Source of the DNA: Pseudomonadota bacterium
GTDB taxonomy: Bacteria; UBA10199; 2-02-FULL-44-16; JAAZCA01
Direction of reading: 5' to 3'
Assembly: GCA_043798915.1 (NCBI GenBank)
Contig: JAZDOG010000036.1
Location: 1 to 37,900, forward strand
DNA: 37,900 nucleotides
How positions within the stretch are numbered: the stretch's first letter is position 1; each line of letters begins with the position of its first letter. Positions 5,893-31,744 of this stretch are shown piece after piece. Made by a program: the position numbers and the translations under genes. A model generated the notes under the pieces. It did no database searches. It was not told the DNA's origin and was given only the letters and a program-made list of their open reading frames with translations.

Positions 5893-5919
5893 TTATCGCA
5901 GTCTCTGAGAAAAAGTTGC
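5893..5919 (-). promoter_or_regulatory. sigma28-like promoter motif, site 1
   Basis: Minus strand GCAAC-N14-TGCGATAA, a variant of the motif at 19755, 20787 and 31716. Confidence 0.5.
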
Positions 5920-6090
5920 GTCCATGAAAGCGGCCGGTCTGTCAAGAAACTTATAACAATTTGAAATATCAGTTGTTTTTGGAATAAACTTTTTTCAAAA
6001 AAATGCCATCAAGGCGGCGGGGAAGAAGATTCATATTCTCCCCGCGTGGCGGTGGCTGACCAGGAAGGAGTCGATCGAGGCAGATTGACC

Positions 6091-6780
6091 TCATGCCGTT
6101 TCTTTTTTCATAATGAACAGATAATTGAACCCGCGCAGGTAGTAGTTCCCCTTGATAGCCTCGGTCTGCCAGTGGTGGCGCCCAAGCTTGCGGTTGTGGC
6201 GGACGACCGATATGACGTCGAGCGGCTTGAAGTATTTGAACAGGAGATCGAAGAGCCTGAATCCGATCGGCACGAAACCCTTTTTCTTCTGATAGGTGTC
6301 CGAGGCATAGAGCGCCATGCAGCGCCGGTCCCGAAGTATCCTGTGGCATTCCGCGATCACCCGTTCCATCGCCCTGAAATATTCGGGCTCAAATGCCGAG
6401 AGCTTGCCTATGCAGTTTCTGTCGTCCGAGTAGACGATGTGATCGGAATACGGCGGATCGATGAAGACGAAGTCGGCCTTGCCGTCCTCGAGGGGAAGCT
6501 TCCTGGCATCGGCGCGAAAGATGTCCTTGCGCGTGGGCGCAATATCGTAGCCCAGCGCCCTCCGTCCGAGTTCGCGAGCCACGTCGATCGTCGTCCCGCT
6601 GCCGCACATCGGGTCTATCACCAGGTCCTTCTCCCTCGTGTAGCGGTTGAGCAGGTTCCAGATGACCCACGACGGCGTAGCGCCGACATAGTCCTTCCCT
6701 CCCTCGCCCACTTCCGAATAGTGCTGCGAGGGATACTCCCACAGCGTCGTCGCCATCGGTTCGAGCTTCGGTTTTCTCAT
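6091..6780 (-). CDS. Orphan SAM-dependent amino (N6-A/N4-C type) nucleic acid methyltransferase
   Basis: Motif I VIDPMCGSGTT, motif IV FIDPPY; SD GGGAG upstream; no adjacent endonuclease. Confidence 0.85.
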   Translation of the reverse strand: MRKPKLEPMATTLWEYPSQHYSEVGEGGKDYVGATPSWVIWNLLNRYTREKDLVIDPMCGSGTTIDVARELGRRALGYDIAPTRKDIFRADARKLPLEDGKADFVFIDPPYSDHIVYSDDRNCIGKLSAFEPEYFRAMERVIAECHRILRDRRCMALYASDTYQKKKGFVPIGFRLFDLLFKYFKPLDVISVVRHNRKLGRHHWQTEAIKGNYYLRGFNYLFIMKKETA

Positions 6781-6877
6781 GGCCGCCCTCTCCCATCGGC
6801 TGCATTAGCGTATTATGGCCCTATTGACAACCCTCAGCCGTTGCTGCTATTGGCAGCGTGCATTCTGACAACCAGCG

Positions 6878-7051
6878 ATTCGGCGTGGCAAGGGAAACGG
6901 GCGATTGCCGTCATGGCAAGAATCCCGTGCGGTCCCGCCACTGTGAGAGGCTAAATGCCCCTCTCGCCATTCTAAGTCACTGTCCCCTTTCGGGGACGGG
7001 AAGGCAAGGCGAGCAGGAGGAAACCTCAAGCCAGGAAACCTTGCGCCGGAT
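6878..7051 (+). promoter_or_regulatory. Cobalamin (B12) riboswitch
   Basis: AGGGAA-CGGG...AATCCCG-GCGGTCCCGCCACTGT...AGTCACTG...GGGAAGG...AAGCCAGGAAACCT (B12 box); closing helix CGGCG..CAAGG / CCTTG.CGCCG; upstream of a TonB-dependent receptor and ABC transporter. Confidence 0.9.
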
Positions 7052-7086
7052 ATTATCGAGCAACTCTTCGCGGAAAGAGGCTTTCG

Positions 7087-9105
7087 ATGCGTTTCTTTGT
7101 TCTATCTGTCACCTTCATTCTCCTTGCCATAGCCAACACGGCAATCGCAGCTCCCCCCGCGGAGCTGGGGGAGATCGAGGTGCGCGAAAGCCCCGCGGCA
7201 AAGCGCGAGCCCTCGCTCGACAAGACCGCCGACGCAGCCGTCGTCCTCCCCTCAGAAGCGAAAGAGCTCGGCACGACCATCCCGCAGCTCCTCGAACGGT
7301 CCGCTGGCGTCTACGTGAAACGCTACGGAGGCCTCGACGATTTCGCCGCCATATCGCTGCGCGGCTCCACCGCGCAGCAGATCCAGATATATCTCGACGA
7401 CGTGCCGCTCGCCTCGCCTCAGGGGGATATCGTCGACCTGTCGCTCATCCCGCTCGACGTGATCGATCGCATCGAGGTCTACAAAGGCGGATCGCCTGGC
7501 ATCATCCCCGACTCCACCGTGGGAGGGGTCGTAGTGCTCAAGACGAAGAAGCGCCCGGAGAAGACCGAGACCACTATCCGCAACACGGGCGCATCGTTTA
7601 CCACCTACAAGGGGCTCGTGAGCCGCGCGCAGGCCGTGGGCAGATTCTCCTACGTCGCGGCCTACGAGCGATATCAGAGCGACGGCGATTTCACGTATCT
7701 CGACAACAACGGGACGACGTTCAACGCAGCCGACGACGTCCTCACCACGCGCAAGAACAACAACTTCGCATCCAACAGCCTCTATTCGAAGATGATGGTC
7801 GAGCTGTCGAAGGACGCTCATCTCTCCTTCTCGAACTCCTTCTTCAACAAGGACCAGGGGGTACCCGGCCTCGGCAACAGGCAATCGCTCATAGCCAGGC
7901 TCGAGACCTGGCGCGACGTGGTCTCGGCCGCCGCCGACAAGGACTTCTCTTCGATCAAGGGCCTCTCGGGGCACGCCGATCTCTTCTTCGATTTCCTGAA
8001 CAACCAGTTCAGCAATCCGAACGGCCAGATAGGCATCGGCATCCAGAGGAATGACGACGACACCTACAGGTTCGGCGAAAACTTCAGGGCCACCTATCTG
8101 CTGGGCTCGCACCAGCAGCTCAAAGGTTTCGTGTCGCATCGCGGGGAGTATTTCTGCCCGGTCAACTGGGCCGCAACTCCGTCCCACGGCCCGCACAGCG
8201 GGAGGAACAGCTTGAACGCCGGGGCCGAGGACGAGATAATCCTCTTCGCCGACAGGCTTTCGATCGTACCGTCGGCCAGGCTCTCCAGCATCTTCAACGA
8301 CCTCACCAACCAGGACCCGTCGCAGCCGACGGCGTTCGTCTCCACCAATTCGCGCGTCGACAACCAGCTCTCGGCGAAGCTCGGCGCTTCGATACGCCTC
8401 ATCGACGAGCTTCGCCTGAAGGGAAATATCTACCGCGGCTTCAGAAACCCCACCTTCTCCGAGCTTTTCGGCGACAGGGGAACGCTGGTCGGCAATGCTA
8501 CCCTCCGGCCGGAGGAGTCGTTCAACGTAGACGCCAGCCTCTCCTACAGCTACCGGAAAGACGAAAATCGGCTCAGCGCCGATTTCGAAGCTACGTATTT
8601 CCGCAACAGCGTGGACAACCTTATCCAGTTCCTCCAGACATCCCAGTTCACGGTCCGCGCCCAGAACACCAACAAGGCGCTCATCAACGGGATGGAACTC
8701 TCGGCCCGCGCCGCGTGGGCGGAGAGGCTCTCGGCCTATGCGAACTACACGTTTCAGGACGCCAGGGACGCAAGCTCGCTGCCAGCGACGTCCGGAAAAT
8801 ATCTGCCCGGGAGGCCCAGGCACGAACTCAACGCCGGAGTGACGTGGAGCAAGCCGTGGGCAGGATGGATCTCGACGAGGCTCTCGGGCGAGATCAACTA
8901 CATGAGCGGCAACTATCTGGACACTCAGAACCTGCTGTCGGTCAACAACAGGACGATCGTCTCGGCGGGGCTCGCGGCGATCATCCTCAAGGATCTCACA
9001 CTTTCGTTCACGGTGAGAAACCTGACGAACGAAATGATATCCGATCTGGTCGGCTTTCCGCTGCCAGGGAGGTCGTATTGGGGAACTATGGAAGTTAAGA
9101 TTTAA
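7087..9105 (+). CDS. btuB: TonB-dependent outer membrane receptor, cobalamin transporter
   Basis: Signal peptide; plug motifs GVYVKRYGG, ISLRGS, IYLDDVP, IDRIEVYKGG; barrel motifs GFRNPTFSELF, LRPEES, terminal LPGRSYW; downstream of the B12 riboswitch. Confidence 0.88.
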   Translation: MRFFVLSVTFILLAIANTAIAAPPAELGEIEVRESPAAKREPSLDKTADAAVVLPSEAKELGTTIPQLLERSAGVYVKRYGGLDDFAAISLRGSTAQQIQIYLDDVPLASPQGDIVDLSLIPLDVIDRIEVYKGGSPGIIPDSTVGGVVVLKTKKRPEKTETTIRNTGASFTTYKGLVSRAQAVGRFSYVAAYERYQSDGDFTYLDNNGTTFNAADDVLTTRKNNNFASNSLYSKMMVELSKDAHLSFSNSFFNKDQGVPGLGNRQSLIARLETWRDVVSAAADKDFSSIKGLSGHADLFFDFLNNQFSNPNGQIGIGIQRNDDDTYRFGENFRATYLLGSHQQLKGFVSHRGEYFCPVNWAATPSHGPHSGRNSLNAGAEDEIILFADRLSIVPSARLSSIFNDLTNQDPSQPTAFVSTNSRVDNQLSAKLGASIRLIDELRLKGNIYRGFRNPTFSELFGDRGTLVGNATLRPEESFNVDASLSYSYRKDENRLSADFEATYFRNSVDNLIQFLQTSQFTVRAQNTNKALINGMELSARAAWAERLSAYANYTFQDARDASSLPATSGKYLPGRPRHELNAGVTWSKPWAGWISTRLSGEINYMSGNYLDTQNLLSVNNRTIVSAGLAAIILKDLTLSFTVRNLTNEMISDLVGFPLPGRSYWGTMEVKI

Positions 9106-9113
9106 AACCAAAC

Positions 9114-9206
9114 CCCTCCCCTTTGTAAGGGGAGGGTCAGGGTGGGGTAGATCATCATGGAATTAGATATCTACCTCCCCCTGCCCCTCCTTACAAAGGA
9201 GGGGAG
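9114..9206. repeat. REP-like inverted doublet, copy B
   Basis: Same two inverted units as copy A with a longer spacer; lies between btuB and the first lipoprotein gene. Confidence 0.88.
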
Positions 9207-9224
9207 CAAAAAAGGAGATGCATT

Positions 9225-10496
9225 ATGAAGAAGGCATTCGCAGCACTCGCACTGCTGTGCATGCTGGCCATGGCGGCCTGCGGCTCGGTGAACAACTCCA
9301 CGTCCCCGGCGCCTACACCAACTCCGGCGCCATCGGAGACCCCGACGCCCGAGGCGCCGGCGGCGACCCCGCCCTACACGGAGATGCTGCCGTCTGACGC
9401 CGCAATACCGGTCGGGAACACCGTGGTCGTATTCAACTCGAGCTGGACTGACCCGATCGGCAATCTCTCGAGCATCCTGCTCTCGACCCCTGCCTCCCCG
9501 GTGCTCGCGCGCGTCACGACCGACGGCTCCGACGCGGTCGCCAAGAGCTTCGGAGGAAGGATCTACGTCGTCAATCGTTTAGGCGCCGACTCCATACAGG
9601 TCATCGACCCATCCAATTTCTCGGTCGCAGCCGATTATTCCGTGGGCAAGGGTTCCAACCCGCAGGACATCGCCGTCGTGTCGGACGAGAAGGCCTATGT
9701 GTCGAGGCTTGATTCACAGAATGACACATCCGACACGGGCGACGTGCTGGTCATCAACCCGCTCACGGGCGCGAAACTCGGAAGCATCGACCTCAAGCCC
9801 TACACCGATCCAAACGGCAACCGTCTTGCCCGCGCGGCGCAGATGGTCCTGGTCGGAAAACAGCTCTATGTCTGCATCCAGGACCTGCCCGCAGACATGT
9901 CCAAATCCGCCAGCACAAACGGGAAGGTGGCAATCATAGATACCGAGACGGACGGCCTTGTCGATGTGGATCTGAACGCGGCCGGCACGCAGGTGATTGA
10001 ACTCACCGGGAGGGATCCCTGGGGCATCACCTACTCGCCGCTGACCGACAAGCTCTACGTCGCCGACAGCGGCACCTTCGTCAACCTGGCTGCCGACACA
10101 AGCGACAAATTCGGCGGCATAGAGGTCATAGATCACAAAACGAACAGGAGCGAAGGCATCGTGGTGGACGACGCTGCGCTGGGCGGTGGCATATACGAAG
10201 TGAGGATCGCATCCGCGGAGCTTGGCTTCACGATCACGAGCCCCTCCCTGGGGGTCGCAAAGATCGCATCGTTCAACCCGACAACATATGCGGTCGTTTC
10301 GAAAAACGTCTACACGTCACCGGGATTTTATCTCCCGGACTTCACAATCGATTCGCAGGGGAGGCTCTTGATAGCGGAGCAGGAAGCGAAGGGTCCCGGC
10401 GTCGTCATCCTGAACGCCTCCGACGGCTCGAAGGTCGCGGGCCCGGTGAACGTCGGCGCGCCGCCGGTGTCGATAACGTTTGTGGATGTGCAGTGA
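9225..10496 (+). CDS. Lipoprotein with YncE/BtuG-like beta-propeller
   Basis: SD AAGGAG; lipobox-like MAAC; Pro/Thr linker; blade motifs IYVVNR..DSIQVID, GSNPQDIAVVSDEKAYVS, KLYVADSG. Confidence 0.75.
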   Translation: MKKAFAALALLCMLAMAACGSVNNSTSPAPTPTPAPSETPTPEAPAATPPYTEMLPSDAAIPVGNTVVVFNSSWTDPIGNLSSILLSTPASPVLARVTTDGSDAVAKSFGGRIYVVNRLGADSIQVIDPSNFSVAADYSVGKGSNPQDIAVVSDEKAYVSRLDSQNDTSDTGDVLVINPLTGAKLGSIDLKPYTDPNGNRLARAAQMVLVGKQLYVCIQDLPADMSKSASTNGKVAIIDTETDGLVDVDLNAAGTQVIELTGRDPWGITYSPLTDKLYVADSGTFVNLAADTSDKFGGIEVIDHKTNRSEGIVVDDAALGGGIYEVRIASAELGFTITSPSLGVAKIASFNPTTYAVVSKNVYTSPGFYLPDFTIDSQGRLLIAEQEAKGPGVVILNASDGSKVAGPVNVGAPPVSITFVDVQ

Positions 10497-10524
10497 AACC
10501 AACTGACTTTGGGATTGATCCAGC

Positions 10525-12459
10525 ATGAAATGCAGCAATGCAAAGACAGCGATCATGATGATCCTTGCCGCGATCCTTGTTGCAGCATGCGCCGGCTGCC
10601 ATACCGGCGCATATGCGCCGGAGGACGCCTCGCCGAACTCAAGCGCAACAGGGCTGCGGACCTTTGCCCTGGCCGGCGATTTCCCCTCTGACATTGTCAT
10701 TCCGGATATCGACGGCATGCGCTCCACGGCGTTTGTGGTCTCTGCGCAAGATCCTTCGGGCGTGATCGCTATCGACATCGATGCAAACCCGATGAAGCCC
10801 TCCGCGGTTTTTAGGGGCGTCACTGTGCCGGAAGACGCAGGCATTCCCTTGCGGCTGGTCATCGCAACGCGCTCGCAGGGTTTTCTGCTCAACTCCAATG
10901 CCGTCGTTTCCTTCAATCCCGAAACCGGCGCTGTGCTCGACCTCACAAGCGTCGTTGCACCCCTTGCCATTGGCGGAGGGCATCTGAACTCCGACAGCAG
11001 CACCGCAAACACCTGGCTCAACCCTTCCGATCCTGGCGGCATTGCAATTGCCGGAGACAAACTCTTTGTTTCCTCTTCAAACTATCTCCACACACAGCCC
11101 CCGGCGATTGCAGCCCCCGGCACGGTGCAGGTCTTCACGATCAACGCCAACGGATCGCTCACGCCTTCAAACCGGTTCATCACCAGCGGCTACAATCCCA
11201 CCGGGCTCGCGGTGCGCAATGATAATGAACTGCTTGTGCTCAATTCCGGCATCATCGAGAGCGCCGGCGCCAAAAATGTGGCGCAGAGTGACGCTTCCAT
11301 AGATGTGCTCGATCTGGGCATGCTGACGATCACCTCCACCGTCCCGCTCGGCAAGGTAGCGGCATCTCCCTGGGGTCTTGCGCTAACGATTGACGGCTCG
11401 CGCGCCTTTATCGGCTCTGCGGCCTTTGGCCATATCTATGAGGTCGATCTGATCAAACGCCAGGTGCTGCGCGGCGCAGATCATCCGATCGCGGTATCCG
11501 ATGGCGCGGACCATGTGTTGGCGCTCGCGCTCTCCGTGGATGACCAGTATCTCTTTGCCTCGAGCTTCAAACAAAACTCGGTGTTGCCTTTTGATCTCAC
11601 CGCATCAGACCCTGCGCTCGGCAACGCCTATATGGTCGGCTTTCCCTCCGGCGTTACCAACGATAATCCCAGTGGCGCCAACACCGGTGCAGGTCCGCTT
11701 GCCGTGAGGCCCGGCTCGCGCGGCATGGACTACAGCGGCGAGGATCTCTTCGTGCTCACCGGTTATCCTGGGACATTGGTCGCCATCACCACGGATGCCT
11801 CGGCCCAAAGACATACCCCTCCTGCTCTGCCTGCCCCAGACAACAACACCGCACCTCCCACCACACCGCCATCGGGCAACAAAGTTGCACCCTGTCAGGG
11901 TTTCGCGGAGGCAGTTCATACTGTGACATACGGACCAGGCGCAGGCTTTGGGCAAGGTTTCTTACCCAACATAGTGCTGGGACCGCCCCACGGTGCAGGG
12001 GCGCTCAGCGGTGGTTTGGACGTGCTCTCGCTGGGCACGGGCGGCGAGATCGTGCTGGACCTGGAAAACTGTCCGGTGGTCGATGGCCCCGGCAAAGATT
12101 TTATCGTGTTTGAAAATGCCTTCTTGATCGGAGGAAATCCAGCCACGCCGTATGCAGAGCCGGCAACGGTCGGCGTCAGCGATGATGGAATCACGTTTAC
12201 CGACTTTCCGTGCTCGCTTGCCGTCTATCCTTATCAGGGATGTGCTGGCTGTCACCCGGTCTATTCCAATCCCAACAATAACATCAGCCCGTTTGATCCG
12301 CTCGCCGCAGGTGGTGAAGCATATGATCTGCACGATATCAGCATCGCGCATGCGCGCTTTGTGCGCGTCCGCGACGGCGGCGTATGCTGTGCAGGAATCA
12401 CTACGGCGGGTTTTGACCTGGATGCCATCGCGGTCATTCACGGAGAGACTAATAATTAA
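10525..12459 (+). CDS. Lipoprotein: beta-propeller plus C-terminal cell-surface (BtuH-like) domain
   Basis: Lipobox VAAC; propeller motifs; Pro-rich linker; C-terminal VLSLGTGGEIVL, DGPGKDFIVFENAF, AEPATVGVSDDG, FVRVRD, GFDLDAI. Confidence 0.72.
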   Translation: MKCSNAKTAIMMILAAILVAACAGCHTGAYAPEDASPNSSATGLRTFALAGDFPSDIVIPDIDGMRSTAFVVSAQDPSGVIAIDIDANPMKPSAVFRGVTVPEDAGIPLRLVIATRSQGFLLNSNAVVSFNPETGAVLDLTSVVAPLAIGGGHLNSDSSTANTWLNPSDPGGIAIAGDKLFVSSSNYLHTQPPAIAAPGTVQVFTINANGSLTPSNRFITSGYNPTGLAVRNDNELLVLNSGIIESAGAKNVAQSDASIDVLDLGMLTITSTVPLGKVAASPWGLALTIDGSRAFIGSAAFGHIYEVDLIKRQVLRGADHPIAVSDGADHVLALALSVDDQYLFASSFKQNSVLPFDLTASDPALGNAYMVGFPSGVTNDNPSGANTGAGPLAVRPGSRGMDYSGEDLFVLTGYPGTLVAITTDASAQRHTPPALPAPDNNTAPPTTPPSGNKVAPCQGFAEAVHTVTYGPGAGFGQGFLPNIVLGPPHGAGALSGGLDVLSLGTGGEIVLDLENCPVVDGPGKDFIVFENAFLIGGNPATPYAEPATVGVSDDGITFTDFPCSLAVYPYQGCAGCHPVYSNPNNNISPFDPLAAGGEAYDLHDISIAHARFVRVRDGGVCCAGITTAGFDLDAIAVIHGETNN

Positions 12460-12491
12460 CAATATTAACAATTAACCCTAAGGAGGTTGCC

Positions 12492-13823
12492 ATGTTGCCA
12501 GTAATAATTTTCGGTATCGCTGTAGGCAGTGCGATTTTTTTCTCGGGATGCAAAAAACCGCCAGAGGATCATCCTGATGATCAAGACAACAACATAGTGC
12601 CAAAAGATACCGGCGCCGCGCCAAATGACATCAGCGCCGTGCCGAATGACATCAGCGCCGTGCCGAAAGATGCGGGCGTCGATATCAGCGGCGCAAATGC
12701 GGATATGTCTATTCCCCTCGATGCCGCTAAATCTGATACCGCGGTGCCCGTAACACCCAATGCGCCTGCGGCGAGTTCTTACACCAACATGCCCTGTGCC
12801 TTCCCGGCAAGCCTTGCGCACGATCCTTCCACAAACACGCTGCTTGCGGCCTGCGGCGGGGCCCCCAATGCGCTTTTTCGCTCGCAGCCCCTGGGTCAGA
12901 CCGGCAAATGGACACAGGTGGGCGTGGTTGGCGGTTATCCTGCGCACCATATCCAGCTGGATAATCGTTTTTTCCTGGTGAATCACGGTTCGCCTGATGG
13001 ATTCACCATCATCGATGCGCAAACCGGGCTGCCTTCTTCCGAAATTGCATTCTCGGCACTCGCCCCGCGCACCCTGCAGAACCAGCCGCTCGGCTTCACC
13101 CCCAATAATCCTGCAGGCGCTATCATCTCGGGTGCAACGCTATGCATAGCCACCTCGAATCTGAACCACTTCGACGCGGACCCCGCAAAAACCACGTTTT
13201 ATCCTGGCACGGTCTTGTGCATGCCTTACAAAACCTCTGACGGCACAGTCAACACATCAAACGTCACGGCGATTGTCACCTCTGGCATCAACACCACGGG
13301 CATGACAGCATGCGGCGCGCAACGTTTTGCGGTCCTGTCTTCCGGGAGCTATTCGCCAAATCCCAATCAGCAGGCCTCGCTGGATATCTGCACCCTGCCT
13401 TCCATGAACTGCACTGCAACACCCTTAGGTGCAATCACGGCGCAGATATCTCCAACACTGGCACTGACCCAGAGCGGCATGATCCTTATCGGCGTGCAAA
13501 AGCCGTCTCCCAAAGTGCTGGGCGTTTCCAGCACAACGGGTCAGATTGCCTATGACCGCAATGTGCCGGAGGTGCAGAACTTCATCACCTCAATCGCAAC
13601 GCACGACCACGTTGCGGCCTTGTCTGATTTCGGCCAGTTTGGCAAGGGTAGCGCAGTTCTCTTTGCAGATGTGAATCCCAACGGCTGGACCGGCATCCCC
13701 TCCTCTTCGATCAACGGTTCTTGCGGACCCTCGGTCGTAATCGGCGATGCCTTGTATCAGTCGGTAACTGATAACGCAGGCGCTGCAGGGAGCGTGTGGA
13801 AGCTCAATATGGCAGGGATGTAG
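12492..13823 (+). CDS. Lipoprotein, beta-propeller-like, paralog of 10525-12459
   Basis: SD AAGGAGG; lipobox FSGC; low-complexity repeat linker; shares PGTV, TSG.N.TG, VL.SG and AS.D blocks with the preceding protein. Confidence 0.72.
   Translation: MLPVIIFGIAVGSAIFFSGCKKPPEDHPDDQDNNIVPKDTGAAPNDISAVPNDISAVPKDAGVDISGANADMSIPLDAAKSDTAVPVTPNAPAASSYTNMPCAFPASLAHDPSTNTLLAACGGAPNALFRSQPLGQTGKWTQVGVVGGYPAHHIQLDNRFFLVNHGSPDGFTIIDAQTGLPSSEIAFSALAPRTLQNQPLGFTPNNPAGAIISGATLCIATSNLNHFDADPAKTTFYPGTVLCMPYKTSDGTVNTSNVTAIVTSGINTTGMTACGAQRFAVLSSGSYSPNPNQQASLDICTLPSMNCTATPLGAITAQISPTLALTQSGMILIGVQKPSPKVLGVSSTTGQIAYDRNVPEVQNFITSIATHDHVAALSDFGQFGKGSAVLFADVNPNGWTGIPSSSINGSCGPSVVIGDALYQSVTDNAGAAGSVWKLNMAGM
12600..12683 (+). 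repeat. 21-bp coding tandem repeat (PKDTGAA-PNDISAV-PNDISAV-PKDAGVD)
   Basis: CCAAATGACATCAGCGCCGTG / CCGAATGACATCAGCGCCGTG at 12621-12662 plus degenerate flanking units. Confidence 0.85.
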
Positions 13824-13824
13824 T

Positions 13825-14652: not shown

Positions 14653-14658
14653 ACATAA

Positions 14659-14753: not shown

Positions 14754-14762
14754 TTGTTAAAT

Positions 14763-18831: not shown

Positions 18832-19707
18832 TCAGGGCTTGCTGGGCGCCACCACACACCGGATTCCGATAACATCGGTTTGGAAACCGCCGGGACTACC
18901 GCTGTAGCGGCTGGCCGCCCGCAGATAATCGTCAAAATAGGGATTCGAGGAACCGCCGCGGATGACTTTCTTGGCTCCCTCTCTGAGATTGACCGGGTCC
19001 TTTTCAGGCATCTCACCATACCAATTTCCATCATATGTATCGAGGACCCATTCCGACGCGTTCCCGGCCATATCGCAGAGGCCGAGCGACGTCCTCCCGT
19101 GCGTGCACACATCCGCCGTGGTCTCGGCATCGTATTGCGCTTCGCTATGATTCAGCTTGCCGCTGGCAGTCGGGTACTCATGGCCAGGCGCGCAACCCTT
19201 AAAAACATCCCTCGCCGCGCGCTCCCACTGCGCCTCAGTCGCAAGGTCTCCGCCTATCGACTGACAGTAGGCCCTCGCCTGATCCCATCTCACCCCAACA
19301 GCCGGCTGGTTGGGGCCATCATATCCGTTCCACTTCTCAAGCTTGGTCGGCACCTTTTTTGGCTCGATAACAAAATTGCAGCGGTTCGGGTCGTCGGGAA
19401 TCTGGCGGCTCTGCAGATGCAGCTGGCGCTCGCTGTCTTCGCGTGCGACAATCGACTTGGCGTGCGCGCCGCAGGAAACACTCATGAGATTGAACGCAGG
19501 CTGCTGCGCCTGTTTGGCCACATACGTTGAGTATTCCGTATTCGTGGCCTCATGCTCCGCGAAGCAGAAGGCCGAAACCTCGATCTCACGAACCGGCCAC
19601 TCATCGCGATCGCCGTTCCTGGAGCCCATCATGAATCGTGCTGTGGGAAAATACACAAACCCGGACGGACACCTGCTGTCTCCGCTCATCTCTCCGGCTC
19701 CAATCAT
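18832..19707 (-). CDS. FGE-sulfatase (SUMF1/EgtB/PvdO-type) domain protein
   Basis: FMMGS, HEATNTEY, QPAVGVRWDQARAYC, LATEAQWERAAR, GLCDMAGNASEWV, KVIRGGS, IGIRCV; SD GGAGG. Confidence 0.85.
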   Translation of the reverse strand: MIGAGEMSGDSRCPSGFVYFPTARFMMGSRNGDRDEWPVREIEVSAFCFAEHEATNTEYSTYVAKQAQQPAFNLMSVSCGAHAKSIVAREDSERQLHLQSRQIPDDPNRCNFVIEPKKVPTKLEKWNGYDGPNQPAVGVRWDQARAYCQSIGGDLATEAQWERAARDVFKGCAPGHEYPTASGKLNHSEAQYDAETTADVCTHGRTSLGLCDMAGNASEWVLDTYDGNWYGEMPEKDPVNLREGAKKVIRGGSSNPYFDDYLRAASRYSGSPGGFQTDVIGIRCVVAPSKP

Positions 19708-19754: not shown

Positions 19755-19781
19755 TTATCGGCAGGCCGACAAATAAGTTGC
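19755..19781 (-). promoter_or_regulatory. sigma28-like promoter motif, site 2
   Basis: Minus strand GCAAC-N14-GCCGATAA, about 48 nt upstream of the ATG at 19707. Confidence 0.6.
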
Positions 19782-19867: not shown

Positions 19868-20713
19868 TTATGGATTGGAGCTCACCGATGTTTTTTGTAC
19901 AGGATGTCGAAGGGATGTGAGGACCAGTTCGCCCGTGAGTTTGGGTGACGTTTTTGCTGTTTGCAATCTATCTTTGTAGAGCTCGTCCCGATCGGGCAGA
20001 CGACGAAGCGTATAGCCTCTGTTGCGAAGAAAATCCAACCCATAGGATAGTGGCAAAGAAACAGGCCAAAAAGTCTGGAGTATTAAGGATCTCGCTTTAG
20101 TTAAAAAACTTTTTTGTTCATAAAAGGGAGTTCTGAACACAATATCAACAAGATTCCTACCTTCCATATTCAGCATGAACAAGGCACCTTCGGTCAATCC
20201 GAAGTTGTCCGCTATGTTTTCCATCCGTCGCATTTTCAATTCTTCGGAACCGCCATCTATAGTATTGCATCCATCAATAATAACACGCACCTTGTTGCTG
20301 AAATGCCGCAGAATAGGTCCAAAAACTCGTTCAACGCTGTATGTATCGTCCAGCCAGACCCTAAAGCTGCCGGATTCATTGCTCACACCAGAATAATAAT
20401 CTTTCCAAGCACCGCCAGAAAACCATTTGTTAAGTCCACCACCGCCATGAGACAGCAGATAAAAGCCATCGACAGGAGGATTGTTTCTGAGACGCATTTC
20501 CAATGCCAACGTTCTATTCAGATGTCTATTGGCGGTAGTGCTGATGACAACAATTTCTGATTCAGGCATTGATTTTTCAATATCGCCCCTGCGGTACATC
20601 ACTCGATGCGGGTTGGCAGCACCGAGATTATCATCTGCGGAAGTATCTATGATGAAGAAGACACCCTTCGTGGGTTGCTGTGGAGAAATCGGCGTGTTAG
20701 CTGGAGATGCCAT
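19868..20713 (-). CDS. Hypothetical protein, possible clan CD (caspase/DUF4347-like) His-Cys peptidase fold
   Basis: 281-aa AT-rich ORF with GFYLLSHG and VIIDGCNT strand-end motifs. Confidence 0.6.
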   Translation of the reverse strand: MASPANTPISPQQPTKGVFFIIDTSADDNLGAANPHRVMYRRGDIEKSMPESEIVVISTTANRHLNRTLALEMRLRNNPPVDGFYLLSHGGGGLNKWFSGGAWKDYYSGVSNESGSFRVWLDDTYSVERVFGPILRHFSNKVRVIIDGCNTIDGGSEELKMRRMENIADNFGLTEGALFMLNMEGRNLVDIVFRTPFYEQKSFLTKARSLILQTFWPVSLPLSYGLDFLRNRGYTLRRLPDRDELYKDRLQTAKTSPKLTGELVLTSLRHPVQKTSVSSNP

Positions 20714-20786: not shown

Positions 20787-20814
20787 TTATCGGCAGAAGG
20801 AGGGACATTGTTGC
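20787..20814 (-). promoter_or_regulatory. sigma28-like promoter motif, site 3
   Basis: Minus strand GCAAC-N15-GCCGATAA. Confidence 0.6.
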
Positions 20815-23494: not shown

Positions 23495-23514
23495 CCTGAG
23501 AGGAAGATCCAAAC

Positions 23515-24492: not shown

Positions 24493-24501
24493 TCGGCCGC
24501 A

Positions 24502-24735
24502 CTACTCGCCATCGTCTCCGATTGCTTCAACGGGGCACGAGTCCTTGGATTCGTGGCACTGCGCCTCTTCCTCTTCGCTCGCCGGCTGCTTGTTCACATA
24601 AGCATAACCCGCTTCTTCCTGATGCGCGAAGTTGGTGGGCGCGATGTCGCGGCAGAGGTTGCAGTCAATGCACTGTGTATCTACGTAATAACGCCCGTCT
24701 GCACTCTCCGGAACCTTGTCGTCGTGGTTTGCCAT
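24502..24735 (-). CDS. Ferredoxin (single cluster)
   Basis: YYVDTQCIDCNLCRDIAP...CPVEAI; SD GGAGG 6 nt before ATG 24735. Confidence 0.92.
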   Translation of the reverse strand: MANHDDKVPESADGRYYVDTQCIDCNLCRDIAPTNFAHQEEAGYAYVNKQPASEEEEAQCHESKDSCPVEAIGDDGE

Positions 24736-24789
24736 ATCCATCCTCCTCCCTGACAGTTGATGACGGCCGGGCATAACGACACATGCCCA

Positions 24790-25431
24790 CTATGTCAAGC
24801 CGTATCTGGGACATAATTTGAGCACCGGGCAGGTGGGGCACGAGGGACTCCTGGCCGCGCAGCAGCGGCGGCCGTGGGTCATGATGAGGGTGGAGAATTC
24901 GGTCCAATTCCCCTCCGGCACGATCGCCGCCAAGTCGGCCTCGACCTTGTCTGGGTCCTTCTGCTTTGTGAGCCCAAGCCTCTCCGAAACCCTGAGGACA
25001 TGAGTGTCGCATATGATCCCCGGAAGGCCGAATGCATAGGCGCGCACGAGGTTAGCCGTCTTTCTCCCCACCCCCGAGAGCCCGATGAGCTTCTCCATAT
25101 CTTCAGGGACTTTTCCGCCGTGCTCCATCGTGAGCTGGGTGCAGCAATTTTGAATCGAGCGCGCCTTGTTCCTGTAAAATCCCGTCGATCGTACCGCCGC
25201 CTCGAGCTCCGCGCTTGAGGCCTTCGCGAAATCCTTTGCGGTGCGGTATTTTGAAAAGAGCGCGGGCGTCACCTCATTGACGCGCGCATCGGTGCACTGC
25301 GCCGAAAGGATCGTGGCGATCAAAAGCTCGAGCGCGCTCTTGTAATTCAACTCACACCTGGCGTGCGGGTAGGTTTTCTGGAGCAGAGGTAAAATTTTTC
25401 CTGCCCTCACCTTGGGGGAATCCATCTTCAT
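24790..25431 (-). CDS. nth: Endonuclease III
   Basis: LIATILSAQCTD, GFYRNKA, HhH LSGVGRKTAN, DTHVLR, Fe-S motif C.ARSPSC..C....CP; ATGA overlap with polX. Confidence 0.95.
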   Translation of the reverse strand: MKMDSPKVRAGKILPLLQKTYPHARCELNYKSALELLIATILSAQCTDARVNEVTPALFSKYRTAKDFAKASSAELEAAVRSTGFYRNKARSIQNCCTQLTMEHGGKVPEDMEKLIGLSGVGRKTANLVRAYAFGLPGIICDTHVLRVSERLGLTKQKDPDKVEADLAAIVPEGNWTEFSTLIMTHGRRCCAARSPSCPTCPVLKLCPRYGLT

Positions 25432-27158
25432 CCTTTCGTTTTTCTGAAATGTTTGATGAGGGCATCCACGCCGAGACAATTCAGGACGTCCCCTTTTTCC
25501 AGCCAGCCCTTGCGGGCGATGCCCACGCCGTAGGCCACGTCCACGAGGCCCTCCGGCTGATGCGCGTCCGGACAGATTGCCATCTTCGCGCCTCTCTCCT
25601 TCGCGTATTTGCACCAGCGCCAGTCGAGGTCGAGCCTCGAGGGATGCGCGTTGATCTCGATCGCCGTGCCGTGCCCCGCCGCTGTATCGATCACCTTCTT
25701 CATATCCACCGCGTACCCCTCGCGCGCCAGGAGCAGCCTGCCCGTGGGGTGCGCCAGAATGCAGACATACGGATTGGATATCGCCTTGACGATCCGATCC
25801 GTCATATCCTTTTCGTTCATGCCGAAGCGCGAATGCACCGCCGCGATGACGATATCGAATGTCGCCAGGATATCGTCGTCGAAGTCGAGCTCGCCGCCGG
25901 CCATGATATCCACCTCGATCCCCTTGAGGACGCGGAAGCCATTGAGTTTTCCGTTCAGGGCGTCGATCTCCTTGTGCTGGCGCTTCACGTCGGCCGGCTT
26001 CATGCCGTGCGCTATCGTCACCGCCTTGCTGTGGTCGGTGATGGCGAGATACGAATAGCCGAGCGAGCGCGCCGCCTTCGCCATCCCTTCGATGGATGCG
26101 CTGCCGTCGGTGTAATTGGAGTGGGCGTGGATCACGCCCTTGAGATCGCCCTCTTCTACCAGCTTCGGAAGCTTGGCCTTAGCCGCGGCCTCTATCTCTC
26201 CCGTGTTTTCCCGGAGCTCCGGCTCGATGTATTCGAGGCCGAGCGCCTTGAAGATGCCGGCCTCATCCATGCACGCGATCGACTTTTTCGACGCGCCCCT
26301 GAAGAGGCCGTATTCGTTTAACTTCAAGCCGGCCTTCTTGGCTAGAAGGCGCATGGCGACGTTGTGCTCCTTCGATCCGGTGAAATAGTGGAGGGCGAAC
26401 GGATATTCCCCATCCTTCACGGCGCGCAGGTCGCACTGGATGCCTGAGGAGAGCACCACCTCCGACTTCGTGTCGCCGTGCTGGACGACGCGCTCTATTC
26501 CCGGGAGATGGACGAACCTGTCCATCACCTTCGCCGGATCTCTGGTCGATACGAGGATGTCTATGTCCCTGACGATCTCCTTCCGCCGCCTGATGCTGCC
26601 GGCCACCTCGGAGCGCGCCACCTCGGGCCAGAGCTTCACCGCATCGTGCACGGCCCGCGCCTCTGCGGCCGCATCGGAGAAGAGCCTCTGCCCCGCGAAG
26701 CGCTTGAGCGATTCTATCCCCGCGAGGATATTCTTCTCCATCTTCTCGCCGAAGCCGGGGAGTCCGTCTATCATGTGCCTCTTGCAGACCATCTCGAGCT
26801 CGCCCGGCGATTTGATCCGCAGCTCCTCCCAGAGATATTTCACGCGCTTTGGCCCAAGGCCTGGGATGGAGAGTATCTGCACGACCCCCTCCGGAACCTT
26901 GGAGCGGAGTTCGTCGTACTCCTTGAACGTGCCGCTCTTCATGATCTCCGCGATATGATCGGCGATGTTCCTGCCTATCCCTTTGATGGACGTGAGCTTG
27001 CCCTCGGCCACGAGGCCCGCGAGGTCGTCGGTGAGATTGTCGATCGCGCGCGATGCGTTCTCGTATGCCCTCACCTTGAAAGGATTTTCCCCCTTGAGCT
27101 CGAGGAGCATCGCCACTTCGCTCAACATGTTTGCCACGCCGTGTTTGTCCATGGTCAC
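25428..27158 (-). CDS. polX: DNA polymerase X with C-terminal PHP domain
   Basis: GENPFKVRAY, AGSIRR..E..RDIDIL, YFTGSKEHN, LNEYGLF, IEPELRE, HAHSNYTDG, ITDHS, AHPTGR, DAH. Confidence 0.95.
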   Translation of the reverse strand: MTMDKHGVANMLSEVAMLLELKGENPFKVRAYENASRAIDNLTDDLAGLVAEGKLTSIKGIGRNIADHIAEIMKSGTFKEYDELRSKVPEGVVQILSIPGLGPKRVKYLWEELRIKSPGELEMVCKRHMIDGLPGFGEKMEKNILAGIESLKRFAGQRLFSDAAAEARAVHDAVKLWPEVARSEVAGSIRRRKEIVRDIDILVSTRDPAKVMDRFVHLPGIERVVQHGDTKSEVVLSSGIQCDLRAVKDGEYPFALHYFTGSKEHNVAMRLLAKKAGLKLNEYGLFRGASKKSIACMDEAGIFKALGLEYIEPELRENTGEIEAAAKAKLPKLVEEGDLKGVIHAHSNYTDGSASIEGMAKAARSLGYSYLAITDHSKAVTIAHGMKPADVKRQHKEIDALNGKLNGFRVLKGIEVDIMAGGELDFDDDILATFDIVIAAVHSRFGMNEKDMTDRIVKAISNPYVCILAHPTGRLLLAREGYAVDMKKVIDTAAGHGTAIEINAHPSRLDLDWRWCKYAKERGAKMAICPDAHQPEGLVDVAYGVGIARKGWLEKGDVLNCLGVDALIKHFRKTKG

Positions 27159-27577
27159 TTATGGTACGGCTCGCCGCGTATTATCGTGCAGGCTCGGTAG
27201 AGTTGCTCCGCGAGAACAACCTGCACGAGTTCGTGCGGGTATGTCATGCGCGAGAGCGAGAACCTCTGATCCGACCTCTTCATTATAATCTCCCCAATCC
27301 CAGCCTCGCCTCCTACGAAAAAGACGATGCGTTTCGTGCCGCGCCTCTGGTGCTCAGAGATGAAATCGGCCATCTCCATCGAGCTCTTCTGCAAGCCGCG
27401 CTCATCGAGAACCACGAAGAAATCCTGCGGGTCGAGGCTGCCCAGTGCCTGTTTCTCGTCGCGGCACGCCTTTATCTCAAAGGGGAGGTAGTGCGTCAGG
27501 CGTTCCGCGTAATCGGCGACGAGCTCCTGAACGGCGCGCGACTTGGGGCGCCCTATGGCGAAGACGGTTATTTTCAT
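27155..27577 (-). CDS. rlmH: 23S rRNA (pseudouridine-1915-N3)-methyltransferase
   Basis: MKITVFAIG, VLDERG, FFVGG..G, FSLSRMTYPH, EQLYRA, GEPYHK. Confidence 0.92.
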   Translation of the reverse strand: MKITVFAIGRPKSRAVQELVADYAERLTHYLPFEIKACRDEKQALGSLDPQDFFVVLDERGLQKSSMEMADFISEHQRRGTKRIVFFVGGEAGIGEIIMKRSDQRFSLSRMTYPHELVQVVLAEQLYRACTIIRGEPYHK

Positions 27578-27593
27578 CTGAGAATCCACCTGC

Positions 27594-27679
27594 TGTCATT
27601 GCGAGGAGCGATAAGCGACGAAGCAATCTCTTTGATTCCAAGGGATTGCTTCGCTCCCGTTGGTCGCTCGCAATGACAA
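27594..27679. repeat. Palindromic TGTCATTGCGAG-family repeat (REP/RPE-like)
   Basis: TGTCATTGCGAG...CGAAGCAATCTC / GGGATTGCTTCG...CTCGCAATGACA long hairpin between rlmH and priA. Confidence 0.8.
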
Positions 27680-27756
27680 CCCGGCAATCAATAGCCGACA
27701 GTCCGGCGAATATCAAGCCCTTGCGGGCAGGCTGCAAATGGGCTACAGGCCATCAT

Positions 27757-29799
<2,043 letters not shown>

Positions 29800-29910
29800 T
29801 TTGCTGCACACTGCATCAAAACGCAGCACCCACCTTAAAGCCTCCGAGGCAAGGCTATTTGTACCACATTGTTTTCACTTATAAATTTTCCATCATCACA
29901 TTGTCATCTA

Positions 29911-29927
29911 TTGGCATGCTTCTTGCT
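29911..29927 (+). promoter_or_regulatory. sigma54 (-24/-12) promoter
   Basis: TTGGCATG-CTTC-TTGCT matches TGGCAYR-N4-TTGCW; upstream of the ORF6N gene. Confidence 0.7.
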
Positions 29928-29943
29928 CTCTTGGTCGTCGGAT

Positions 29944-29964
29944 CTGGTCACAATTTGTGACCAG
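29944..29964. promoter_or_regulatory. Perfect palindrome, operator-like
   Basis: CTGGTCACAA-T-TTGTGACCAG; related palindrome inside the downstream CDS at 30200-30226. Confidence 0.65.
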
Positions 29965-29998
29965 CTTCCCAAGACACCACATATTACGGAGCGACATC

Positions 29999-30529
29999 AT
30001 GATAGATCATGTCGGTATGATTCCTATGCGGACGATAGAAGAACGGATCTTCTTGATAAGGGGGCAACGCGTAATGATAGACGCAGACCTGGCCAATCTA
30101 TACGGCGTTTCCACAAAGAGGCTTCACGAGCAGGTCAAAAGAAACATCGCGCGTTTTCCACCTGATTTTATGCTCACGCTCACATCTGATGAGTTGAAGG
30201 AACTGGTCGCAAATTGCGACCAGTTCAAAAAACTCAAGCATTCTAGCGTGTTACCACGTGCATTCGCGGAGCACGGGGCATTGATGCTCGCCAGCGTACT
30301 CAACACACCACGCGCGATCGAAGTCAGCGTCTTGGTAGTAAGGGCCTTCGTCAAGCTGCGGGAGATTCTGTCGACGCATAAGGAACTAGTTTACAAGCTG
30401 AATGAGCTTGAGCGCAACATTGCAACGCATGACAAGGCGATCCAATCATTATTTGCGGCCATTCGCCAACTGATGAAACCGCCTGAATCAACACAGCGCC
30501 GCATTGGCTTCTATGTTAAGCAAAATTGA
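29999..30529 (+). CDS. ORF6N domain DNA-binding protein
   Basis: IRGQRVMIDADLA.LYGV.TKRL.EQVKRN..RFP.DFM.L, PRAFAEHGALMLASVL, RAFVKLR, RRIGF; SD GGAG. Confidence 0.9.
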   Translation: MIDHVGMIPMRTIEERIFLIRGQRVMIDADLANLYGVSTKRLHEQVKRNIARFPPDFMLTLTSDELKELVANCDQFKKLKHSSVLPRAFAEHGALMLASVLNTPRAIEVSVLVVRAFVKLREILSTHKELVYKLNELERNIATHDKAIQSLFAAIRQLMKPPESTQRRIGFYVKQN

Positions 30530-30593
30530 CGGGATTGTTGTCGACCGCAAGTAAACCTGCTCTGATTTATGGCGGGCTGTTTCCGAAGTCATC

Positions 30594-30628
30594 CTCCCCC
30601 TTTGTAAGGGGGAGTTAGAGGGGGTAGA
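30594..30628. repeat. Single REP-like unit, same family as copies A-C
   Basis: CTCCCCCTTTGTAAGGGGGAG-TTAGAGGGGGTAGA. Confidence 0.78.
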
Positions 30629-30660
30629 CCATGTAACTGGTTTGAGGCGCGCTGATGTTT

Positions 30661-31130
30661 TCATTCTGGGATAACTATCTTAGATCCCAACCCCGCTTTC
30701 GCCACAGCAGCGGCAATCGACTGAAGGGCATAGTAACGACTCCCGGGGTCTGTAATTTTTTCCGCTATGACAATCAAACGCTCAAAGAACGGCATCCCCT
30801 TCCCTTTCAGCCCCGCATCTTCAAAGGCAGAGGCAATCGACTGAAGGGCATCGGAACGATCAGATAGTTCTTCAGATTCCTCCGCATCGGCAATCGCAGC
30901 GGCAATTTGTTTTTCCAATTTTATAAGAAGGAGGTCCCCTTCCGGAGCTTCAAAAAGAGCCAGTTCCTCTGACACGCGATCCCGGTCCGAAACGGTCCTC
31001 CGCGACCCGCGCCAATCGACTATCTTGACCGTTGGATACTCGTGAACGTTGTATTGCCTCGCCAGGCCCTCGTTTTCCGTTCGAAGCCAAAGATACTGCC
31101 CTTTTCCTCGCCCTGCCATTTTGTCAAAAA
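30661..31130 (-). pseudogene. Probable 5'-truncated gene: thioredoxin-like fragment plus 40-aa helical repeats
   Basis: LARQYNVHEYPTVKIVD fragment; ALQSIA repeat (20-bp exact repeat at 30712-30731 and 30832-30851, 120 bp apart); the ORF-track ATG at 31143 lies inside the opposite-strand AbiEii fragment. Confidence 0.5.
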
Positions 31131-31557
31131 GCAGAACTTTCATATCAAACTGGAAATCAATACGGAGGATGTCGTCCCGTCTGAGCTGAAGGTCCTGTAT
31201 TCAGAACTGGCGCCGGCATCGTTTCATCTGCAGGTCATGCGGGTTGATTATCTGGTCGCCCAGAAGATCAGGGCGCTGATGCAGAGGGGCAAGGGTCGCG
31301 ACCTTCTCGACCTGTGGTTCATTTTGAAAACCGGTCTTCCGGTCAAACGGGGGCTGGTCTCGGAGTTGACCGGCGTGAAGGAAGGCGATCTCATGGGCGA
31401 GATTGAAAGCCGTGTGTCGAAGCTCGCCGAAAAAGACATCGCGGCAGATATGAACCCTTTTATCAGGCCAGCGCTCAGAAACTGGGCCAAAAAGGATATG
31501 AAAAAGGACATCCTGCAGATGCTCAAGGCATTCGATCTTCTCAATCAAAACGCCTGA
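31126..31557 (+). pseudogene. C-terminal fragment of an AbiEii/AbiGii-family nucleotidyltransferase toxin
   Basis: IKLEINTE...LVAQKIRALMQRGKGRDLLDLWFIL; the N-terminal GGT/R.S.D.D catalytic motifs and an antitoxin gene are absent. Confidence 0.65.
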
Positions 31558-31715
31558 TGAGCGCATAAACAAATGTATCAAGACTGGATCGCGATCGAGG
31601 AATCAATCCTCGCGGCCCCCAACCCTAACATGCCGATATATAAAGACCTTTATTTGGTCGGCGATGCCCCGTTTATTCGCAAGAAGGCCGCCACAAAAAA
31701 TATTTTTCATCCCAC

Positions 31716-31744
31716 GCAACTTTGCCCCCCTCTCCTGCCGATAA
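31716..31744 (+). promoter_or_regulatory. sigma28-like promoter motif, site 4
   Basis: GCAAC-N16-GCCGATAA. Confidence 0.55.

Follow-up and report, generated by a model that had tools for sequence, protein, structure and literature searches.

Promoter-like sites and their genes in the window

The window is the whole stretch of DNA analysed here, the 37,900 nucleotides (nt) of contig C92 in a 2.34-Mb assembly (105 contigs, 57.7% G+C, 97% completeness) of a bacterium labelled Pseudomonadota. It carries four copies of a two-box motif, GCAAC followed 15 to 17 nt later by CCGATAA or a close variant, and this motif is probably a class of promoters read by a divergent sigma factor of the sigma-28 (FliA/WhiG) family. 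An earlier note, made from the letters of the sequence alone, had pointed to these four sites; all are present as it described them, and its counts of shared elements are correct (CTGCCGATAA in three sites, ACGCAACTT in three and GGACGCAACTT in two). The sites and the features downstream of them are as follows.

5893..5919, minus strand: putative promoter site 1, GGACGCAACTT...CTGCGATAA; GCAAC at 5919-5915, N15 spacing, -10 element GCGATAA at 5899-5893
19755..19781, minus strand: putative promoter site 2, GGACGCAACTT...CTGCCGATAA; GCAAC-N15-CCGATAA; 43.7 bits, rank 9
20787..20814, minus strand: putative promoter site 3, CTAGCAACAAT...CTGCCGATAA; GCAAC-N16-CCGATAA; 36.8 bits, rank 50
31716..31744, plus strand: putative promoter site 4, CCACGCAACTT...CTGCCGATAA; GCAAC-N17-CCGATAA; 30.3 bits, rank 74
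5297..5794, minus strand: orphan gene P0001 (165 amino acids, N-terminus MGGGEGC...), downstream of site 1, with a GGAGG ribosome-binding site
18832..19707, minus strand: gene for an FGE-sulfatase-domain protein (291 amino acids, MIGAGE...; Pfam PF03781, E 1.3e-36), downstream of site 2
19868..20713, minus strand: orphan gene P0002 (281 amino acids), downstream of site 3
31788..31823, plus strand: intrinsic-terminator-like hairpin, a 13-bp stem followed by TTTTTT, ~40-70 nt past the expected start of transcription from site 4
31871..33303, plus strand: operon of def (peptide deformylase, PF01327) and fmt (formyltransferase, PF00551 with PF02911), behind the site-4 hairpin

Bits and ranks refer to the genome-wide matrix described below, in which site 1, with one mismatch to CCGATAA, scores 26.2 bits and ranks 81. 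According to the earlier note, each site is followed either by an orphan gene of higher A+T content or by a short transcript that ends at a terminator. This holds for sites 1, 3 and 4, and the orphan open reading frames (ORFs) behind sites 1 and 3 have a G+C fraction of 0.48 and 0.45, respectively. It does not hold for site 2, whose FGE-sulfatase-domain gene has a G+C fraction of 0.59 and follows a 47-nt leader that contains a hairpin without a T-run. Sites 2 and 3 head adjacent genes on the same strand. Transcription from site 4 would yield a short RNA of ~70-75 nt or an attenuated leader of def-fmt, and Rfam holds no family that reaches its gathering score for the short RNA.

A word-indexed, length-bounded search of 5.8 billion protein clusters returned only the query itself for P0001 and for P0002, and neither protein matches a Pfam family. 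The Atlas structure of P0001 aligns to FGE-sulfatase domains with TM (template modelling) scores of 0.56-0.62, and its feature hits to InvE_AD and Lcl_C clusters score 0.95-0.97; an FGE-sulfatase or C-type-lectin-like fold may be taken as a lead only. The Atlas leads for P0002 are weak.

The motif across the genome

The genome was scanned, as the earlier note had proposed, with a two-block position weight matrix refined on 61 sites, and a third-order Markov simulation of the genome served as the null. The matrix finds 93 sites at 14 bits or more, where the simulated genome has 4, and 85 at 24 bits or more, where it has none; the distribution of scores is bimodal. The expected enrichment is therefore strong, and the sites are correctly oriented to their genes. 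Exact GCAAC-Nx-CCGATA pairs occur 41 times with a spacer of 15 nt, 9 times with 16 and 11 times with 17, and no other spacer length between 8 and 24 nt is represented by more than three pairs. The N15 form, which can also be written GCAACTTT-N11-GCCGATA, thus accounts for 41 of the 61 sites, N16 and N17 together for 20. The counterpart with a canonical sigma-28 -35 element, TAAAG-N15-CCGATA, is absent from the genome.

The logo of the 61 N15-17 sites reads, from upstream, as an A/T-rich tract, cACGCAACTTT, an unconserved spacer (N11) and cTGCCGATAAt. The A/T-rich tract lies 5-10 nt upstream of GCAAC, with one position being A or T in 60 of the 61 sites. CCGATA is preceded by G in 55 of the seed sites and followed by A in 52. 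A purine-rich TGGAGG stands at a fixed distance, 13-18 nt past the first C of CCGATAA, because in many cases the leader is so short that it begins with the ribosome-binding site.

Genes were taken from our own crude codon-bias caller, which made 1852 calls, together 85% of the genome, and misses atypical genes. Despite this coverage, only 12 of the 85 -10 elements fall within a call, so that the sites are mostly intergenic, as promoters would be. On the promoter strand, an ORF of at least 50 amino acids starts within 260 nt at 81 of the 85 sites; the distance from the end of the -10 element to the chosen start codon has a median of 41 nt (quartiles 24 and 70) and is at most 100 nt in 73 of the 81. 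ORFs that score positively and have at least 100 amino acids start within 150 nt of 67 of 80 sites, compared with 33 of 80 when the sites are mirrored and 979 of 2000 random positions.

Some individual sites are unusual in their placement. One of 41 bits (C103:8785, plus strand, L053) lies inside dnaG, ~1.3 kb upstream of rpoD, a position reminiscent of the internal promoters of the rpsU-dnaG-rpoD operon of Escherichia coli. Another of 41 bits (C33:23413, plus strand, L050) has no downstream ORF and faces a tRNA gene on the other strand; it may give rise to an antisense or small RNA. Recent gene duplicates with near-identical leaders are also found behind the motif, several of the copies at contig ends. 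Three FGE-sulfatase paralogues (L029 at the end of C74, L030 on C102 and L071 at the end of C13) share a leader of ~95 nt, and two giant proteins of >884 and 2635 amino acids (L051 on C85 and L055 on C76) share one of ~86 nt. In these paralogous leaders both promoter boxes are retained and the spacers have diverged. Rfam has no family for the conserved leaders.

A divergent sigma-28-like factor as the candidate reader

The E. coli FliA sites at tar and tsr are TAAAGTTT-N11-GCCGATAA, as given in an excerpt of PMC4183435, and the fliC promoter of Pseudomonas aeruginosa has TCTAAAG and GCCGATAA (excerpt of PMC12784957). In the form GCAACTTT-N11-GCCGATAA, the motif has the -10 element, the spacing and the T-run of the E. 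coli FliA promoters, and the core of the -35 element alone differs. The same comparison applies to the class 3 FliA promoters of E. coli, Salmonella and Pseudomonas as a group, which share the -10 element, the distance between boxes and the T-run after the -35 core but have TAAAG where the motif has GCAAC, extended to cACGCAAC. Thus, of the features that define a FliA-type promoter, the extended -10 element and the spacing are found here and the TAAA(GTTT) -35 element is not.

The genome encodes four sigma-70-family factors (RpoD, an RpoH-like factor, one extracytoplasmic function [ECF] factor and one group-3 factor) and one RpoN. By NCBIfam, RpoD scores 735 bits, above its cut-off, and the RpoH-like factor reaches 275 bits where 241 are required. 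The group-3 factor has 309 amino acids, is encoded on the minus strand at C20:63338-64264 and has FliA_WhiG (TIGR02479, E 1.1e-37) as its best family, covering profile positions 1-219 of 224. It has the architecture of group 3, with regions 2, 3 and 4 and no region 1.1 (Pfam Sigma70_r2 and r4), and its closest solved relatives in the Protein Data Bank are WhiG (6pfv) and FliA (9wsf, 6pmi and 1rp3). In being a group-3 factor whose nearest families and structures are FliA and WhiG, it resembles the readers of the class 3 FliA promoters.

The earlier note had singled out region 4.2, and the recognition helix of this sole group-3 factor is both altered and conserved. In all 30 orthologues compared, which come from several families of the phylum, the helix reads LSKSW[T/V]SR[L/M]HARAL with few substitutions in the HARAL tail, and S274, K275, S276, W277, S279, R280 and H282 are strictly invariant. 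SKSWTSRLHAR aligns to SESRVSQLHSQ of P. aeruginosa FliA and to TESRVSQIHTK of WhiG, and the canonical S-E-S-R-V-S-Q is not present. In the P. aeruginosa FliA structure, S224 and Q228 make base-specific contacts to the -35 element (excerpt of PMC12784957). By alignment, the equivalent of S224 would be kept and that of Q228 replaced by R, with changes of R to W and V to T between them. The stretch RI+GAI.D.LR..GW.PR of regions 2 and 3, which reads the extended -10 element, is conserved, in keeping with a -10 element that has not changed. Alteration and conservation in the protein therefore run parallel to those in the promoter.

The group-3 factor is thus the most likely reader of the motif. Overall, a probability of roughly 80% is given to the motif being a class of promoters that RNA polymerase recognises through a divergent sigma-28 (FliA/WhiG-family) factor. 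Such a factor with altered -35 reading, specific to the lineage and controlling a dispersed regulon, was what the earlier note had proposed, and every in silico test that was run is in its favour (-10 element and spacing, helix, co-occurrence, and the promoter of the sigma operon). The system lacks two canonical features of FliA, the TAAA -35 element and a family score above the curated cut-off.

The sigma operon and its secretion cluster

The sigma gene is part of a flagellum-related type III secretion cluster. The loci concerned are the following.

C20:~50,700-69,100 (L116 and L117), minus strand: flagellum-related type III secretion cluster, all on one strand, containing the sigma gene
C42:16998-18989: FlhA, on a contig separate from the cluster
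C13:18442-19461: FlhB, on a contig separate from the cluster
C12:~54,700-56,700 (L205), minus strand: partner-switching module of a STAS protein (114 amino acids), an RsbW/SpoIIAB-like kinase (134 amino acids) and a GAF-PP2C phosphatase (418 amino acids), adjoining a sigma-54 activator

The cluster begins with a copy of the motif (genome site 59) followed by genes for an uncharacterised protein of 184 amino acids, a TPR chaperone-like protein and a short YscJ/FliF-family protein of 322 amino acids. A second copy (genome site 82) precedes a 141-amino-acid ORF, a thioredoxin-TPR protein, the sigma gene, a 164-amino-acid ORF, a FliG-like protein and FliH/SctL, the two ORFs being uncharacterised. 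These are followed by an ORF at the locus boundary, YscO/FliJ-like and FliK/SctP-like proteins, FliM, FliN, FliO, FliP and FliR, and the cluster ends with further uncharacterised and TPR proteins and a divergently transcribed sigma-54 activator with an FHA domain. The order YscJ, 141-amino-acid ORF, sigma factor, 164-amino-acid ORF and FliG-like protein is kept in relatives: among 48 relative loci, which overlap in genomes, the FliG-like gene is present in 48, the 164-amino-acid ORF in 45 and the thioredoxin insert in none.

Fifteen relatives have 219 nt or more of sequence before the 141-amino-acid ORF, which heads the sigma operon, and in all of them the best matrix site in that region reads GCAAC-N17-CCGATAAT, with N16 in one of them. 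The site lies 34-59 nt before the start codon in 14 relatives and 11 nt before it in one, and the spacers are unrelated, as would be expected of a phylogenetic footprint. That all 15 have this promoter at the head of the sigma operon suggests autoregulation, and the sigma factor probably activates its own operon.

No protein in this 97%-complete genome matches the FlgM families Pfam PF04316 or TIGR03824, and relaxed Pfam scans of the uncharacterised ORFs of the cluster returned nothing. A complex prediction for the 141-amino-acid ORF, as a possible anti-sigma partner, with sigma residues 68-300 scored 0.00, which weighs neither way. The partner-switching module is a reasonable anti-sigma candidate because the genome has this sole group-3 factor, and it may control the factor. 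A single query detects its RsbW-like gene in 34 of the 93 genomes; within the organism's own order, 20 of the 21 other genomes have a match.

Distribution in the phylum and the flagellated relatives

The comparison set comprises 93 species of the phylum, all of one class. GCAAC-N15-CCGATA is found in all 93 genomes, and the sigma orthologue in 91 of the 93 and in 63 of the 63 high-quality genomes; the two genomes in which it was missed are 78% and 73% complete. The relatives that a protein search finds in public databases are uncultured metagenome-assembled genomes, mostly labelled "Deltaproteobacteria bacterium".

At 97% completeness, this genome yields nothing that matches Flagellin_N, Flagellin_C, Flg_bb_rod or rod and hook proteins. 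Flagellin is detected in 12 of the 93 genomes, in 11 of them above the cut-off. The FlhA family FHIPEP is found in 91 of the 93, and all 11 flagellin-positive genomes have at least two matches. Flagellin-positive genomes supply every one of the ten best FHIPEP matches (854-889 bits); the single copy in this genome scores 782 bits, and in many relatives a copy of 745-795 bits lies 10-18 kb from the sigma gene. The flagellated relatives have an extra, higher-scoring FlhA, so that the cluster looks like a second machine found throughout the phylum.

In two flagellated genomes (L209, G083:C9 and L212, G084:C22), a second FliA-like gene with the canonical-type helix KTESRICQIHNE lies on the contig that carries flagellin. 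Upstream of the flagellin genes of the 11 genomes (L210-L225), 8 of 13 regions contain [T/C][T/A]AAG(T)TT-N11-TCCGT[T/C] at 62-92 nt before the start, and GCAAC stands in none of the 13. These flagellin promoters appear to be sigma-28-like with an altered -10 element. Canonical sigma-28 promoters were sought in the same regions, and none with GCCGATAA was found, the TCCGTT variant of the -10 element being present instead. On the evidence of these few genomes, the phylum may have two sigma-28 systems, paralogous to each other, that use different promoter codes.

The genes behind the motif

At E 1e-4 or better, Pfam assigns no family to 51 of the 81 first genes (21 of 40 in one part of the set and 30 of 41 in the other). 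Those with recognisable products, together with the intragenic site, are listed by type.

Lectin-like and repeat proteins: five FGE-sulfatase-domain paralogues (including the window gene 18832-19707), two proteins with thrombospondin type 3 repeats and three TPR proteins
Cyclic di-GMP (c-di-GMP): two PilZ proteins (one fused to DnaJ) and a HAMP-GAF-GGDEF cyclase
Peptidases: S13, S8 (two), M16, M15/DUF882 and Zincin_1, with a weak M48 match in the 2635-amino-acid protein
Cell wall: an SLT lytic transglycosylase
Others: a CAP-domain protein, an NYN nuclease, a 1972-amino-acid FHA protein, a helicase, a zinc-ribbon protein, CarD and def
Intragenic: the site within dnaG, upstream of rpoD

Flagellin, chemotaxis and motor genes are absent from the regulon. 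The core of the earlier note's interpretation, a sigma factor and its regulon, is supported; its description of the products as adhesin- or effector-like is not shown, since 51 of the 81 have no Pfam family and only some look surface-binding or lytic, and the host-interacting or predatory life stage that it suggested is a conjecture. Proteins of at least 700 amino acids make up 21% of the first genes, compared with 7.7% of the gene calls. A crude signal-peptide rule picks out 13 of 81 first genes and 351 of 1852 gene calls. The A+T content of the regulon genes is slightly raised (median G+C 0.577 versus 0.596, p = 0.00045).

A glycine-rich N-terminus of the form M-x-[GA]-[GA]-G-[DE]..., often with Cys at residues 6-16, recurs in the regulon after good ribosome-binding sites. 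The pattern [GA][GA]G within residues 2-7 is present in 13 of 81 regulon proteins versus 9 of 1791 other calls (Fisher p = 2.6e-13). Its carriers include the products of the window genes 5297-5794 and 18832-19707 and ~18 others elsewhere in the genome, partly through paralogy. None of 29 promoter-proximal ORFs in two distant relatives (G033 and G089; crude longest-ORF picks) has it. It could be a signal for export or processing.

The S13 peptidase behind genome site 18 has no close orthologue. Its best match in relatives, at 32% identity, is a housekeeping paralogue, and a strong site is absent from the 24 relatives' loci of that paralogue. The comparison is therefore uninformative on conservation and serves as a negative control only.

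Alternative explanations

The alternative that survives best, although it is unlikely, is that the promoter is read by another sigma factor, namely the ECF factor, the RpoH-like one, or RpoD helped by an activator that binds GCAAC. The genome does encode one ECF and one RpoH-like factor, and ECF promoters have AAC-type -35 elements such as GGAACTT, from which GCAACTT is one base removed. However, ECF promoters have a CGT-type -10 element, whereas the motif has an 8-nt -10 element identical to the sigma-28 consensus and unlike the elements of RpoH or sigma-70. The ECF factor occurs in only 8 of the 93 genomes, and in none of the 12 others of the same family, and is therefore removed as the reader; it is absent from 85 genomes that carry the motif. 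Its gene, on C34, has no site nearby, which leaves no motif-based ECF autoregulation. This phyletic argument covers the ECF factor only and leaves the RpoH-like factor untouched. Against the latter, neither dnaK, groEL nor any other chaperone gene is among the 81 first genes. Sites with the sigma-70 consensus (at most two mismatches) exist separately, 348 of them versus 145 in a reversed control, and the motif is therefore not the housekeeping promoter. The occurrence of the same promoter before the sigma-28-like operon in every relative that could be compared also argues for the group-3 factor over the others.

Less probable still is that the motif has no promoter function and is instead bound at its two boxes by a transcription factor, or forms the conserved core of a dispersed repeat or mobile element. 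A bipartite structure with fixed spacing would suit such a site, and some copies do lie in recent gene duplicates at contig ends. However, conservation falls to background outside the two boxes and in the spacer, the strand is tied to the downstream gene, the distance to the start codon is short and consistent, the -10 box is a known sigma-factor element, and the motif recurs in 93 species at hundreds of sites in varied contexts. Chance or a compositional artefact is already refuted by three matches to GCAAC-N13..17-GCCGATAA in the window against 0.03 expected (three being reached in 0 of 100 shuffles), by 85 sites in the genome against 0 simulated, and by 4-79 copies in each of the 93 genomes against 0-7 for the reversed pattern.

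Several points nonetheless weigh against a sigma-28-like reader and against the promoter class as drawn here. The resemblance of GCAACTT to ECF -35 elements is one. The group-3 factor scores 130 bits against TIGR02479, under the curated cut-off of 189.6. S224 and Q228 were placed on the aligned helix as its only S-x3-Q pair, a placement that we infer. Both the motif and the sigma factor are near-universal in the phylum, and their co-occurrence does not separate the group-3 factor from the RpoH-like factor, RpoD or RpoN. The second FliA-like gene comes from only two flagellated genomes with the query used. Gene calls and start choices are our own heuristics, and the 12 -10 elements inside gene calls also count against the class.

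Relation to known systems

The sigma-28-like reading places the system beside several that are better described. The FliA/FlgM flagellar hierarchy differs from it in that flagellin, rod and hook proteins and FlgM are not detected here and the regulon is free of flagellin, chemotaxis and motor genes. The recognition helix also differs, SESRVSQLHSQ in FliA of P. aeruginosa being replaced by SKSWTSRLHAR.

The closest functional precedent is FliA of Bdellovibrio bacteriovorus, for which an excerpt of PMC3627812 gives TTAAG-N16-CCGATA in 92 of 140 mapped attack-phase promoters. According to the same excerpt, its regulon is likewise large and non-flagellar and includes proteases, surface proteins, uncharacterised proteins and small RNAs. 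As in Bdellovibrio, many non-flagellar genes stand behind a sigma-28-type promoter here (~85 promoters and 81 first genes). Bdellovibrio, as far as that excerpt covers it, keeps the canonical -35 element, its flagellum and mapped transcription starts, whereas in the present system the -35 element is rewired, flagellin is missing and what is known comes from sequence.

Chlamydia sigma-28 is likewise a factor of this family in a non-flagellate with type III secretion, where it serves late, stage-specific genes, in so far as the partial sources describe it. The chlamydial sigma-28 regulon is small and its promoters are canonical TAAA/GCCGATAA, in contrast to the ~85 promoters and the different -35 element found here.

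WhiG of Streptomyces, whose structure (6pfv_A) is the best solved match, is likewise a sigma-28-family factor co-opted to a non-flagellar programme (excerpts of PMC8325347 and PMC12871210). A link to c-di-GMP may be common to both, as judged from these excerpts and from the GGDEF and PilZ genes in the regulon. Unlike the factor described here, WhiG keeps the canonical helix TESRVSQIHTK and canonical promoters. A literature search returned nothing relevant, in the partial texts that it covered, on the pair GCAACTT and CCGATAA or on a FliA paralogue tied to non-flagellar secretion.

Other features of the window

Further features were recognised around the sites.

4858-5209, plus strand: transfer-messenger RNA (tmRNA) gene (Rfam RF00023, 164 bits)
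6091-6780, minus strand: truncated N6/N4 DNA methylase, by family match
6867-7061, plus strand: cobalamin riboswitch (RF00174, 72 bits), directly 5' of a TonB-dependent receptor gene at 7087-9105 (plus strand)
29957-30529, plus strand: ORF6N-domain protein, by family match
31042-31557, plus strand: fragment of an AbiEii-type nucleotidyltransferase toxin, matching the C-terminal part of the profile only

Site 1 lies between the tmRNA and DNA methylase genes, and site 1 and its 165-amino-acid orphan are just past the 3' end of the tmRNA gene, which is a common spot for inserted DNA. Defence or mobile-element remnants adjoin sites 1 and 4, as judged from the ORF6N protein, the AbiEii fragment and the truncated methylase.

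Proposed explanation and significance

In the proposed explanation, the altered region 4.2 helix (LSKSWTSRLHARAL) of the group-3 factor would read cACGCAACTTT at -35 in place of TAAAGTTT, and the A/T-rich tract upstream resembles an UP element. Transcription would start ~6-8 nt past GATAA, and many leaders would be very short, beginning almost at the ribosome-binding site. The factor would probably turn on its own operon and drive ~85 promoters, or ~4% of the genes. Its targets would be mostly fast-evolving uncharacterised proteins, together with peptidases, peptidoglycan-remodelling enzymes, c-di-GMP proteins, lectin-like proteins of the FGE-sulfatase fold and parts of the secretion cluster.

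A wider interpretation is offered tentatively, as a conjecture. Nearly every genome of the phylum might carry a second flagellum-related, non-flagellar type III machine with its own sigma-28 paralogue, whose GCAAC code would be insulated from the TAAAG-type/TCCGTT code of FliA. The ~85-promoter regulon would then comprise the late parts of the machine and its exported cargo, and the cargo would act on other cells during predation, epibiosis or symbiosis. Orphans, lectin-like binders and enzymes that degrade cell walls would make up the cargo; many of these proteins lack a Sec signal, and some share the glycine-rich N-terminus. Such a design would resemble the checkpoint at which FliA ties the expression of late genes to flagellar export, and the true flagellar FliA and its promoters would survive in a minority of the members of the phylum.

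Sigma-28 promoters are among the most conserved types of bacterial promoters. In this whole uncultured phylum, a sigma-28 paralogue would have kept its reading of the -10 element intact and changed its reading of the -35 element, with a matching change in the helix, and would provide a natural experiment in the re-coding and insulation of sigma specificity after duplication. Compared with Bdellovibrio, what is new is the re-coded -35 element and helix, the lack of a flagellum and the phylum-wide tie to a flagellum-related secretion cluster. The motif serves as a regulon predictor for 93 uncultured species and would mark ~4% of the genes as a single secretion-linked programme. Most of the genes that it flags are orphans beyond the reach of annotation by homology, and the motif gives a testable way into the lifestyle of the lineage.

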